Assembly (NCBI GenBank): GCA_016699955.1
Contig: CP064993.1
Location: forward strand, 960,001-992,000
From: Candidatus Saccharimonadota bacterium
Lineage (GTDB): Bacteria; Patescibacteriota; Saccharimonadia; Saccharimonadales; UBA4665
Direction of reading: 5' to 3'
DNA: 32,000 nucleotides
Made by a program: the position numbers and the translations under genes. Below, piece by piece: positions 23,362 through 31,298 of the stretch (positions within the stretch are counted from its first letter, which is position 1; the number at the start of each line of letters is the position of its first letter). The notes below the pieces were generated by a model. The model made no database searches, was not told the DNA's origin, and was given only the letters and a program-made list of their open reading frames with translations.

Positions 23362-23607
23362 TTTGCTCTTCCTCTTTATCTGCTAAATCTGCTACCAGTA
23401 TACATAGTCCTGCCCCAGAATAAAATAAGAAGCGTTCATTTTAAGCGCTTCCTATCGATAGTCATTGAATTTACCCTCTCGATCCACTGTTAGCGCCTAT
23501 AGGCGTTAGGCGAGCCTGAGCGAAGCCTACAGGGGCGCAGCTTTAGAGCTAAGGCGTTAATGCCTAAGTTTAGGTAACGAACGTGGGGACTAAGCTAAAG
23601 TAGAATA

Positions 23608-25721: not shown

Positions 25722-25814
25722 TGTGATTTAGAGTTAAGAACTATTCAAGTGATGAGTTAAGAGTATTTAGTGCTCTTTTCTCGTTTCTCTTGTTCTTAGC
25801 TCTCCTTTCCTTGT

Positions 25815-26216
25815 TTAATAAACTTGACAGATTAATTCGCCGCCAAGCCCTACAGCTTTGGCTTCCTCACCGGTCATTAAGCCTTTTGAGGTCGAAATGA
25901 TGAGTATACCGCGGCCACGTTTGACGCGAGGCATTTCACGAGCGTTAGTGTAGGCACGTCGACCGGGCTTGCTCAGACGCTTGATCTCAGTGATGCGCGC
26001 GTTTTCACCGGCAAGGTTTATCGTGATGTGCAGCTGTTTGCCAACACTGAGGTCGGTAACGCTCACGTCTTGCAGAAAACCATTATTCTTTAAAGAAATG
26101 GCGACGTTTTCCTTTATTTTGCTGTGTGGCAGGCTAACTTCATTTTTGCCAACTGCTACTGCGTTTCGTACGCGTGTCAGCATGTCTGAAATTGGATCGG
26201 TTGTAGTGGTGCTCAT
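25815..26216 (-). CDS. rpsH: 30S ribosomal protein S8
   Basis: 133 aa. DPISDMLTRVRNA. Confidence 0.95.
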   Translation of the reverse strand: MSTTTTDPISDMLTRVRNAVAVGKNEVSLPHSKIKENVAISLKNNGFLQDVSVTDLSVGKQLHITINLAGENARITEIKRLSKPGRRAYTNAREMPRVKRGRGILIISTSKGLMTGEEAKAVGLGGELICQVY

Positions 26217-26299
26217 ACAGTGCCTCCTTTCTCATTTGGCAGAGAGCATTGGGTATATGACAGAGATGTAACAGGTTTCATTTGAAGCGAAGTACCCAT
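26213..26299 (-). CDS. candidate 28-codon spacer-filling micro-ORF ([28 protein letters not shown])
   Basis: Its ATG shares the A of the rpsN stop (TAATG, 26301-26297). The frame stays open across the whole 82-nt spacer. Its TGA overlaps the rpsH ATG (ATGA, 26216-26213). Confidence 0.35.
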   Translation of the reverse strand: MGTSLQMKPVTSLSYTQCSLPNEKGGTV

Positions 26300-26568
26300 T
26301 ACCAGCTCGCTTTCGTTACGCCAGGGATTTCACCCTTGCTGGCATGTTCACGGAAAGACAAACGGCTCAGGCCAAACTGGCGCATGAAGGCACGCGGCCT
26401 GCCGGTTTCTATACAACGGTTCTTTTTTCGGGTAGGTGAAGAGTTGCGTGGCAGCTTTGCCAAACCTTCGTAATCACCAAGTTCTTTCAGCTCTTTACGC
26501 TTTACAGCGTACTGCTCGATCATCTTAATGCGCTTTTTGTCGCGCGCTAGATTTGATTTTCTGGCCAT
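26299..26568 (-). CDS. rpsN: 30S ribosomal protein S14 (long, non-zinc form)
   Basis: 89 aa from [13 protein letters not shown], with SD AAAGGAAC. The track ORF adds 12 in-frame codons from an upstream ATG (26604), which I consider less likely. Confidence 0.9.
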
Positions 26569-26674
26569 TATGCAGTTCCTTTCAGCCGCTGAGTCATGCA
26601 GCATGAGTCATAAATCTTGACAGTCACTTTGCGACCGGTAGCTAGTTCTTGTCTCTTGTTTCTTGCCTGTTGTC

Positions 26675-27277
26675 TCATTTTGAATTCTCCTTTTCAAACG
26701 GCATACCAAATTTCTGTAGTAGCGCTTTGCTATGGGCTTTATCTTTGCACTTCACCACAAAAACCGCTTGCATGCCGTGTGTCGTGGTTGTTTCTTCAAA
26801 AGTTAGTTCAGGGAAAACGCTTTGGTCAGTTAAGCCCAGGCTGAAGTTTCCTTGCTTGTCAAATGCCTTGTTGCTTACACCATGAAAGTCGCGCAGACGC
26901 GGCAACACAATGTTAATGAGCCTATCCATAAACTCGTACATCCGCTCGCCGCGAAGTGTCAGTTTGAGGCCAATCATATTGCCTTCGCGCAGTTTAAACC
27001 CAGCGATTGAGTTTTTTGCAACTGTTTCCACTGGTTCTTGTCCGGTGACTTTGCGAAGCGTATTCTTGGCAGCCTCAATTGTTTTTTTGTCATCCTTGGC
27101 TTTACCAAGTCCGACATTGACCACAATTTTTTCAAGTTTAGGAACTTGGTGAGAGTTCACTAGCCCAAGTTCTTTCTGAAGCTCGGCGGCAAATTTCGTG
27201 TTATAGTCATTTTTTAAACGTGCAACGTATTTTGCAGCAGTTTTTGCCGGTTTTTTCGTTATTGTTGCTTCTGCCAT
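26675..27277 (-). CDS. rplE: 50S ribosomal protein L5
   Basis: 200 aa. PKLEKIVVNVGLG and the L5 core. Confidence 0.95.
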   Translation of the reverse strand: MAEATITKKPAKTAAKYVARLKNDYNTKFAAELQKELGLVNSHQVPKLEKIVVNVGLGKAKDDKKTIEAAKNTLRKVTGQEPVETVAKNSIAGFKLREGNMIGLKLTLRGERMYEFMDRLINIVLPRLRDFHGVSNKAFDKQGNFSLGLTDQSVFPELTFEETTTTHGMQAVFVVKCKDKAHSKALLQKFGMPFEKENSK

Positions 27278-28052: not shown

Positions 28053-28370
28053 CTATTTTTCCTCGCCTTTCACACTTGCAGGCTTGTCAGTCACGCCAGG
28101 TACTTGAACGGCAGTTTCGATGTGCTTGACTTCAGCCTTTTCGACAATTGACTGCAAGGTAAAATGTTTGCGACGGCTAATTGGTCGTGTCTCGACCACT
28201 ACAACCGTATCTCCCACTTGTGCTTCGTTGTTTTCATCGTGTGCCATAAATTTCTTGCTTGTTGTGTACTGCTTCCGGTACAAGGGGTGAGTTTTTTTCT
28301 CACGTACCGTAATAACGATTGTTTTGTCGGTTTTGTTGCTGGAGACAACACCGGTAATTGACTTTGGCAT
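28053..28370 (-). CDS. rpsQ: 30S ribosomal protein S17
   Basis: 105 aa. [17 protein letters not shown]...[11 protein letters not shown]. Confidence 0.95.
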
Positions 28371-28471
28371 TATTTGCTACCTCCGGCTTTTGTAGTAGGT
28401 ACTACGTAGTAATTAGTAAGGGATTTTGGAAGCCCAACCATGCTACATGCTACCTGTTGCATGCTAATCAT
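28370..28471 (-). CDS. candidate 33-codon spacer-filling micro-ORF (MISMQQVACSMVGLPKSLTNYYVVPTTKAGGSK)
   Basis: Its ATG directly abuts the rpmC TAA (TAAATG), with AAGGAGG 8 nt upstream. The frame fills the 101-nt spacer. Its TAA shares an A with the rpsQ ATG (TAATG). Confidence 0.4.
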   Translation of the reverse strand: MISMQQVACSMVGLPKSLTNYYVVPTTKAGGSK

Positions 28472-30127: not shown

Positions 30128-30400
30128 TTATTTCCCCTTCGCTAACTTACCGCCGTGGTTGCGGAACTTACGAGTGGGGCTGAACTCGCCCAGCTTGTGG
30201 CCGACCATGTTTTCGGTAACGAAAACCGGTACATGAACTTTGCCGTTGTGCACCGCAAAAGTTTTGCCCACAAAATCTGGCGCAATTGTGCAAGCACGAG
30301 CCCATGTTTTGATAATTGTGCGATCCTCGGGGCCAAGCGCAGCGACTTTTTTCGCCAGCTTCGGATCAATAAACGGCCCTTTCTTAAGTGAACGACTCAT
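30128..30400 (-). CDS. rpsS: 30S ribosomal protein S19
   Basis: 90 aa. [12 protein letters not shown]...HNGK. Confidence 0.95.
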
Positions 30401-30465
30401 TAATTAACTCCTCTTGCTGCTATTATTCCGCCTATGGCACCCCATACAATTCCTGTTGCCATCAT
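30400..30465 (-). CDS. candidate 21-codon spacer-filling hydrophobic micro-ORF ([21 protein letters not shown])
   Basis: Its ATG is 2 nt after the rplB TAA, with AGAGGAAA upstream. The frame fills the 67-nt spacer. Its TAA shares an A with the rpsS ATG (TAATG). Confidence 0.4.
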
Positions 30466-30467
30466 AA

Positions 30468-31298
30468 TTATTTCCTCTTGGCCGCGTGGCGGCTTCTTAT
30501 GATCATGTTACTAGTACTCTTGCGGCGACGGGTCTTTAAACCAAGTGTCTTTTGACCCCATGGAGTGCGAGGGGCTTTAGCCATGCGGTGACGACCACCA
30601 TCACCACCACCGTGTGGGTGATCGACTGCATTCATAACAACTCCACGCACACTTGGGCGCTTGCCTAAGTGACGATTGCGACCAGCCTTACCGATTTTGA
30701 CGTTTTGGTGCTGTTCATTACCAACAACACCTATAGAGGCTGTGCAGGTCAGTAGGAACCTGCGAACTTCGCCGCTCGGCATACGCACCTGAGCGTATTC
30801 GCCTTCCTTGGCCATAAGCATAGCGCTGTTTCCGGCGCTGCGCACAGCTTGAGCGCCGCGGCCAGGCTTGAGTTCAAGTGCATGAATGGTTGTGCCAACT
30901 GGGATGTTTGCAAGTGGCAGACGGTTTCCCATTTCAATAGCAGCTTCTTCGTGGCCACTTACTTTTTGGCCTTGTTTCATGCCACTCACCGCAAGCACAT
31001 AATGATAAGAGCCGGCAGCGTCTTTGACGCGGGCAATTCGGGCACTGCGGTTTGGATCGTACTCAATGTGTTCAACTGTTCCTTCGCCTTGGAAATTGTA
31101 GTTCATCACACGGTAGTGCCTACGCGCACCACCACCCTGATGACGGGTGGTAATACGACCTTGGTTGTTTCGACCGCTGCCGCGCTTAACACTTTTGACG
31201 AGCGATCTGACAGGCTTCTTTGTTGTCACGCCAGAAAAATCTTGGCTGGACATACCGCGCCGACCTGGCGTCGTAGGGTTGTATTGCTTAATAGCCAT
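30468..31298 (-). CDS. rplB: 50S ribosomal protein L2
   Basis: 276 aa. GRNNQGRITTRHQGGG and MNAVDHPHGGG. Confidence 0.95.
   Translation of the reverse strand: MAIKQYNPTTPGRRGMSSQDFSGVTTKKPVRSLVKSVKRGSGRNNQGRITTRHQGGGARRHYRVMNYNFQGEGTVEHIEYDPNRSARIARVKDAAGSYHYVLAVSGMKQGQKVSGHEEAAIEMGNRLPLANIPVGTTIHALELKPGRGAQAVRSAGNSAMLMAKEGEYAQVRMPSGEVRRFLLTCTASIGVVGNEQHQNVKIGKAGRNRHLGKRPSVRGVVMNAVDHPHGGGDGGRHRMAKAPRTPWGQKTLGLKTRRRKSTSNMIIRSRHAAKRK

Follow-up and report, generated by a model that had tools for sequence, protein, structure and literature searches.

An open reading frame that fills a lineage-specific insertion between rplB and rpsS may serve as a translational relay in a ribosomal protein operon of Saccharibacteria

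The DNA analysed here, referred to as the window, is a 32-kb stretch of contig CP064993.1 from a Candidatus Saccharimonadota bacterium (Saccharibacteria, TM7); all coordinates are window positions. Its minus strand carries a ribosomal protein operon with the genes for L4 (cut), L23, L2, S19, L22, S3, L16, L29, S17, L14 and onward. The present contribution concerns the junction between rplB and rpsS (Table 1). The rplB gene ends with ...GCC AAG AGG AAA TAA (stop codon at 30468-30470) and is followed by TT. Two nucleotides past the rplB stop a 21-codon open reading frame (ORF) begins, which reads ATG ATG GCA ACA GGA ATT GTA TGG GGT GCC ATA GGC GGA ATA ATA GCA GCA AGA GGA GTT AAT TAA and offers two in-frame ATG codons, at 30463-30465 and at 30460-30462. 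The last A of its TAA is at the same time the A of the rpsS ATG (30400), resulting in a TAATG overlap. The last rplB codons AAG AGG AAA (30471-30479) constitute a Shine-Dalgarno sequence for whichever cistron comes next, and the GAGGA within these final codons is located 7 nt ahead of the first micro-ORF ATG. The insert supplies a further Shine-Dalgarno sequence for rpsS, AGAGGAG, which is also read as the micro-ORF codons AGA GGA G(TT). The ORF thus has the two features expected of a relay, a ribosome-binding site at its own start and a stop codon within a few nucleotides of the next start. The GC content of the 67-nt insert is 0.42, compared to 0.51-0.53 in the flanking genes.

Table 1 Features of the rplB-rpsS junction and of the other ORF-bridged junctions in the window.
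Feature	Position	Strand	Remarks
rplB (ribosomal protein L2, 276 aa)	30468..31298	-	69-94% identity to L2 of 160 Saccharibacteria loci
Proposed direct-repeat copy 1, CAAGAGGAAATAATTATG	30463..30480	-	rplB end, stop, 2 nt, first micro-ORF ATG
Lineage-specific 67-nt insertion, rplB-rpsS junction	30401..30467	-	3 nt in nearest relatives
21-codon bridging ORF and TAA	30400..30465	-	anatomy read from sequence
Proposed direct-repeat copy 2, CAAGAGGAGTTAATTAATG	30398..30416	-	3' end of insert and rpsS ATG
AGAGGAG, new rpsS Shine-Dalgarno sequence in insert	30408..30414	-	7 nt ahead of rpsS ATG
rpsS (ribosomal protein S19, 90 aa)	30128..30400	-	conserved protein start
33-codon bridging ORF (MISMQQVACSMVGLPKSLTNYYVVPTTKAGGSK)	28370..28471	-	fills 101-nt rpmC(L29)-rpsQ(S17) spacer
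36-codon bridging ORF in ~106-nt rplE(L5)-rpsN(S14) element	26568..26678	-	ATGA upstream, TAATG downstream
28-codon bridging ORF	26213..26299	-	fills 82-nt rpsN(S14)-rpsH(S8) spacer; TAATG upstream, ATGA downstream

A first-pass annotation of the same DNA had described an ORF that starts 2 nt after the rplB stop behind Shine-Dalgarno-like codons, a TAA that shares its last A with the rpsS ATG, and AGA GGA codons that double as the rpsS Shine-Dalgarno sequence; all of this is found in the sequence as described. Its further statement that the rplB-rpsS spacer, 67 nt in the window, normally measures only a few nucleotides is borne out by the relatives, in which the median is 10 nt (156 Saccharibacteria loci with both genes) and most insert-free junctions have 2-13 nt.

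These relatives were collected by a search with the L2 protein, which yielded 80 genome loci and 80 metagenome loci with an L2 identity of 69-94%; the named genome records among them belong almost exclusively to Saccharibacteria/Saccharimonadales (TM7). In the closest relatives, L001 (94% L2 identity), L002/L081 (93%) and L006 (91%), the two genes are joined as TAA-nnn-ATG with a spacer of 3 nt, which identifies the 67-nt spacer as the derived state. The rplB 3' end, GCCAAGAGGAAATAA, is kept among relatives and is located 8 nt ahead of the rpsS ATG in insert-free ones. There, rpsS is driven by AAGAGGAAA-TAA-nnn-ATG, whose Shine-Dalgarno sequence belongs to the final codons of rplB and has a distance of 8 nt to the ATG. 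The same AAGAGGAAA motif stands 7 nt ahead of the micro-ORF ATG in the window, and the second Shine-Dalgarno sequence stands 7 nt ahead of the rpsS ATG. No genome of the same species was detected, as exact-protein look-ups of S19, L14 and L16 were empty and the best metagenome relative had an L2 identity of 93%.

Searches with the 67-nt insert and with the 21-residue peptide (blastn-short, blastp-short and tblastn against the 160 loci and the whole window) produced chance-level matches only; the best peptide match among the 160 loci had a blastp E value of 0.77, and no second copy of the insert was present within the 32-kb window. A neighbour-joining tree built on L2, S19, L22 and S3 shows that the content of the rplB-rpsS slot differs between sister taxa: in the small clade of the window two members have 3 nt in the slot, one has a 124-nt hairpin element, another a 309-nt gene and a third a 144-nt ORF, next to the 67-nt insert of the window itself. 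The first-pass annotation had recommended a comparison of this junction among related genomes and had taken conservation in relatives as the measure of its proposal of a small membrane protein. ORF and DNA are absent from the 160 related loci; relatives with 91-94% L2 identity have either spacers of 3 nt, as the nearest ones do, or inserts unrelated to the present one. These comparisons therefore give no support to a conserved gene for a small membrane protein.

The rplB-rpsS junction is not the only expanded one in the window, which holds four bridging ORFs of the same class (Table 1). The first-pass annotation had counted the present ORF as the second instance of a spacer-filling pattern; the pattern stands, the count was too low. 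The DNA at the L29-S17 junction shows 72-91% identity to elements at the L23-L2 junction of L005 and at the L29-S17 junction of L003 and is derived from a palindromic family of junction elements, of which it is a decayed copy (fold z=-0.8). The L5-S14 element is 82% identical over 112 nt to the L23-L2 element of L003, and the DNA of the S14-S8 ORF is 75-80% identical to the 3' half of an element family present in L001, L003, L007 and L010. The 93-nt S8-L6 spacer (25722-25814, minus strand) is purine-rich, contains an imperfect palindrome and has stop codons in all three frames. It is the sole expanded junction of the window without a bridging ORF and hence an exception to the rule described below. 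A 246-nt non-coding gap between L15 and secY (23362-23607, minus strand) likewise has stops in all frames and includes palindrome-like stretches such as TAGGCGCTAAC / GCCTATAGGCG.

To place the window in its clade, gene ends were located in 161 genomes for the eight junctions that follow one another from L23 to L14, giving 1041 junction instances. The spacer measured -10 to +13 nt in 899 instances and at least 40 nt in 132; lengths of 14 to 16 nt (3 instances) and overlaps beyond -10 nt (7 instances) were rare. A single ORF spans at least 90% of the insert in 118 of the 121 distinct inserts of at least 40 nt, compared to 7.7 expected from composition-preserving shuffles, and in the 40-80-nt class nine out of ten inserts are bridged (1.7 expected). 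The start of the bridging ORFs lies at -4, -1 or +1 to +5 nt relative to the stop of the preceding gene, and their own stop overlaps the start of the following gene as TAATG in 64 cases and as ATGA in 33; with +2 and TAATG, the 21-codon ORF has a typical geometry among the 118. The inserts themselves are mutually unrelated, comprising hairpin element families, a gene family of ~110 aa and orphans, and they are bridged by ORFs whatever their sequence. One conserved element tail, GACYGAARGGAG, reads ...RLKGAA* in some copies and ...ATERSA* in others. Since this tail is open in two frames, it is the open frame and the joined ends that are conserved and not the peptide sequence. A purine-rich motif of the GGAG type is present close to the 3' end of every other insert as well. 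Among the three inserts without a single spanning ORF is the 585-nt rplB-rpsS slot of L069, which contains two consecutive ORFs of 98 aa and 131 aa (the latter with a TTG start), possibly two genes or a frameshift.

Untranslated gaps of more than ~16 nt are thus almost never tolerated within the ribosomal protein operon of this clade. In reporter experiments with E. coli and Haloferax, a stop-start distance of ~20 nt almost abolishes termination-reinitiation (PMC10666635), and the gap limit of the clade agrees with this distance limit. We regard the bridging rule as natural comparative evidence for strong selection on termination-reinitiation coupling or on continuous ribosome cover. No description of ORF-bridged junctions, of the junction elements or of the slot gene family discussed below was found in the searchable literature.

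The short inserts (76-170 nt) can be grouped into DNA families that recur at different junctions in different genomes and are therefore mobile. Most of them are palindromes with arms of 7-8-nt sub-repeats. The family collected in alignment A3 (L009, L012, L014, L020, L038, L042, L064, L079, L085, L099, L112, L125 and L142) occupies five different junctions and has two conserved stem-loops, the first of which has nine base pairs with compensatory changes; its peptide reads ..REKSSQS..LRDEKNR.VCLM... The junction elements, this family included, had no match in Rfam, and the family could be a mobile element that is recognised via its hairpins or a structured RNA.

The rplB-rpsS slot harbours a gene of 82-164 aa (~110 aa) in about a quarter of the Saccharibacteria loci (L004, L007, L009, L012-L015, L017, L023, L028, L035, L039, L041, L057, L061, L066, L068, L070, L073, L079, L080, L090, L098, L107, L110, L112, L119, L120, L125, L141 and L149). 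The slot proteins, encoded by long inserts (86-164 aa) most of which lie at rplB-rpsS, evolve very fast and share the motifs LGxxVG, EPP and DFxxG. Nine of them were searched against Pfam and were without a domain; a query of one slot protein against a large protein database gave no match, and the profile of the family detected four members there, one annotated as 'hypothetical protein' and three unnamed. For slot protein P0003, AlphaFold predicts a bundle of helices with moderate confidence (pLDDT 70), and no PDB entry matched this model at E<=0.001 (best E 3.8). The patchy distribution of the gene on the tree points to repeated losses or to exchange by way of the conserved flanks. Other junctions, too, are filled by longer acidic ORFs (57-116 aa), namely L23-L2 in L012, L023 and L149, S19-L22 in L017, and L29-S17 and L22-S3 in L050; the L23-L2 ORFs of L012 and L023 are 49% identical to each other. 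The slot gene phenomenon is therefore not limited to rplB-rpsS.

What, then, is the 21-codon ORF? The first-pass annotation had seen in it a gene for a single membrane helix of the GxxxG type. The peptide is indeed hydrophobic (GRAVY 1.23) with an apolar run of 17 residues and a G5xxxG9xxxG13 pattern, and a lineage-specific gene for a small membrane or glycine-zipper peptide, co-expressed with the ribosomal proteins, would have a strong inherited ribosome-binding site at its disposal. Moreover, the 21-mer is the most hydrophobic product among 87 short bridging ORFs (class median GRAVY -0.2), which a pure relay model does not predict; as an outlier it also indicates that hydrophobicity does not characterise these ORFs in general. 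Well-known examples of small hydrophobic or membrane proteins whose helices are of the GxxxG type are KdpF, AcrZ and type I toxins, and the 21-mer resembles them in length (~20-30 aa), in its apolar glycine-rich core and in its short polar C-terminus. However, these proteins are generally conserved across related species and are not known from ribosomal protein operons, whereas the 21-mer is without relatives at the DNA or peptide level in the 160 loci, is replaced by a 3-nt spacer in the nearest relatives and has no above-threshold Pfam match. Its uninterrupted apolar run covers only 17 residues (M1-A17), which may be short for a segment that spans a bilayer (~18-20 residues or more), and the 19-residue Kyte-Doolittle mean of ~1.3 (hand arithmetic) is below the usual threshold of 1.6. 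When its residues are shuffled, a GxxxGxxxG pattern appears in 9.8% of the cases. The codons are poor for a ribosomal operon (relative use of AGA 0.02, GGA 0.13 and ATA 0.17), GC3 is 0.24 compared to 0.48-0.55 in rplB and rpsS, and a membrane micro-protein expressed at the level of ribosomal proteins would be in an odd setting. We therefore retain the hydrophobic character and the GxxxG motif from the earlier description and consider a dedicated peptide gene very unlikely.

The opposite view, that the ORF is a meaningless chance product in an untranslated spacer and that rpsS is translated from its own Shine-Dalgarno sequence, must be taken into account as well, since an rpsS Shine-Dalgarno sequence at ideal spacing and without occluding structure is present and the S8-L6 spacer of the window does without a bridge. 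When the spacer was shuffled with its composition preserved, 11.5% of the shuffles had some ORF over at least 90% of the length, and 2.9% had an ATG ORF that starts between -4 and +8 nt of the rplB stop and ends between -3 and +4 nt of the rpsS ATG. At a chance level of 3-12% the ORF of the window is, taken alone, only mildly unlikely, and the strong statistics come from the clade-wide pattern. That pattern speaks against chance both by the enrichment of bridged inserts, overall and in the 40-80-nt class, and by the near absence of untranslated gaps of 14-39 nt across the 1041 junctions. In addition, the micro-ORF start sits at the position of the relatives' rpsS start behind the same Shine-Dalgarno sequence, where initiation would be hard to avoid. 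A chance ORF is for these reasons unlikely.

We lean, with some reserve, towards a third reading, in which the 21-codon ORF is a relay cistron that keeps translational coupling intact after a recent insertion, the peptide being probably a by-product. The ORF is probably translated; indirect support for this comes from the ribosome-binding site inherited from rpsS and from the bridging of 118 of 121 inserts in the clade. The course of events may have been as follows. A recent, lineage-specific insertion of about 64 nt entered the rplB-rpsS junction, so that the former ribosome-binding site of rpsS, possibly together with the former start codon, would now precede the micro-ORF ATG. Ribosomes that finish rplB, or that bind afresh, would start on the micro-ORF, cross the insert and stop at TAATG directly on the rpsS start behind the AGAGGAG supplied by the insert. 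Untranslated gaps would stay at 2 nt or less, so that termination and reinitiation would remain coupled and the operon mRNA would still be covered by ribosomes without a break. The selected property would then be coupling by way of an open frame with joined ends, and the hydrophobic, glycine-rich peptide would most likely be short-lived. Short ORFs whose only role is the delivery of ribosomes are recognised in a review (PMC12548453). The 67-nt spacer contains no significant RNA structure, attenuator, promoter or terminator; Rfam gave no match in the spacer, and only tRNAs reached the threshold in the window. A relay, or ribosome cover, fits these results better than the melting of an inhibitory structure.

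Several observations run counter to a relay function. The rpsS Shine-Dalgarno sequence is well placed and free of occluding structure, so that rpsS might be translated adequately without coupling. Both the S8-L6 spacer (93 nt) and three of the 121 inserts elsewhere are without a spanning ORF, which means that bridging is not absolutely required. Nor does a pure relay account for the first rank of the peptide in hydrophobicity among the 87.

The insert itself offers some hints as to its origin. Direct-repeat copy 1 (Table 1) is likely the original ribosome-binding site and start codon of rpsS, and copy 2 keeps the TAA-3 nt-ATG geometry of insert-free relatives. The 3' end of the insert, CAAGAGGAGTTAATTA-ATG, matches the rplB end, CAAGAGGAAATAATTA-TG, at 14 of 16 positions (p=0.0085 against shuffles), and the insert tail scores 16 against the rplB end and not more than 11 against five other gene ends of the window. 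These data from the window are suggestive of a duplication of the RBS-stop-start junction around a core of ~45 nt upon arrival of the insert, in which case rpsS would formerly have started at the first ATG of the micro-ORF; they are no more than suggestive because convergence under selection for a Shine-Dalgarno sequence could lead to such a likeness as well. When all 41 rplB-rpsS inserts are considered, their tails resemble the rplB end no more than they resemble control gene ends (means of 10.5 and 10.8). A tandem duplication of the rplB 3' end was rejected, as only the last 16 nt, comprising Shine-Dalgarno sequence, stop and spacer, match (p=0.0085) and the 44-nt core does not (p=0.40).

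Alternatively, and compatible with a relay, the insert may be a stump left by the decay of a junction hairpin element or of a ~110-aa slot gene, with the frame kept open meanwhile. Hairpin elements or slot genes occupy the same slot in close relatives (L003, L004, L008-L010), the strongest of the weak DNA matches of the insert all fall on GGGAAAAGAGCAGCCAGAG, the 5' motif of element family A, and the peptide is loosely similar to hydrophobic stretches in slot proteins, L110 and L035 among them. Against such a descent, Smith-Waterman alignments of the insert with all short elements were not above shuffles (p=0.32, the best alignment being equalled by 32% of them), and the best peptide match was the above-mentioned one with E=0.77. 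The hairpin of the palindromic elements was not found in the 67-nt spacer (MFE z-score +0.31; 127 of 200 shuffles fold as well). The insert ends in GCAGCAAGAGGAG and not in the conserved element tail GACYGAARGGAG. With the HMM of the slot family the peptide reached -1.3 bits, a value matched by 16% of shuffles; the same result led us to reject as unsupported a remnant of a long slot gene, which a by-eye likeness to L110, L035 and L017 had brought up. An origin from a decayed stump is thus conceivable and, on balance, doubtful.

The proposed relay has counterparts in other bacteria. Mycobacterial interspersed repetitive units (MIRUs) are mobile intergenic repeats that insert at start codons and carry a coupled ORF (PMC12548453). 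As with MIRUs, a short insert resides in an operon at or near a start codon between co-oriented genes and brings a small ORF of the same orientation whose ends abut or overlap the flanking genes (+2 nt and TAATG), and for both the proposed role of the ORF is to make the insertion tolerable without harm to translation of the downstream gene. The description of MIRUs reportedly goes back to Supply et al. 1997. They differ from the present insert in being multi-copy repeats, whereas the 67-nt insert occurs once in the 32-kb window and in none of the 160 relatives, and in their upstream joint, a -4 overlap instead of +2 nt. The elements at neighbouring Saccharibacteria junctions are better analogues of MIRUs, yet they are palindromic hairpins and not tandem direct repeats. 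Palindromic elements of Rickettsia are mobile and are tolerated through compatibility with open reading frames, a likeness that applies to the hairpin elements at the neighbouring junctions. The Rickettsia elements, however, insert in frame within genes and join the protein, whereas the junction elements are separate mini-cistrons between genes, and the 67-nt insert, unlike the Rickettsia elements, is not palindromic. A further parallel is provided by delivery ORFs coupled to a downstream gene, as in synthetic bicistronic designs (PMC12548453) and in the iraD leader ORF (PMC5574718). These share with the 21-codon ORF the very short length, the proposed hand-over of ribosomes through a 1-4-nt overlap and the dispensable peptide; they differ in that they lie in 5' leaders and start the chain, whereas the 21-codon ORF lies between cistrons and would relay a chain begun at rplB. 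By analogy, the ORF appears to work like a MIRU-type or delivery ORF with no detectable membership in a repeat family.

Taken alone the 21-codon ORF is a minor curiosity. The more interesting result, and the value of this modest locus, lies in the clade rule and in the mobile hairpin elements, hitherto undescribed, and the uncharacterised gene family to which it points at operon junctions. One could go further and assume that operon junctions of Saccharibacteria are obligatorily translated slots and a nursery for new peptides and proteins, although we consider this quite improbable. If true, a mobile hairpin, a foreign gene or junk DNA would persist only as an open, tightly joined mini-cistron, inserts would be translated at the level of ribosomal proteins, and the 21-residue glycine-zipper peptide would represent an incipient micro-protein, with the ~110-aa slot family as an older product.

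For annotation, the junction ORFs call for caution, since many such mini-ORFs are probably translated and yet are not genes in the usual sense. ATG codons within the elements can also mislead the calling of start codons. The S14 gene of the window is a case in point: a mechanical ORF list places its start at 26604, an in-frame ATG within the L5-S14 element, and the true start is most likely 26568.
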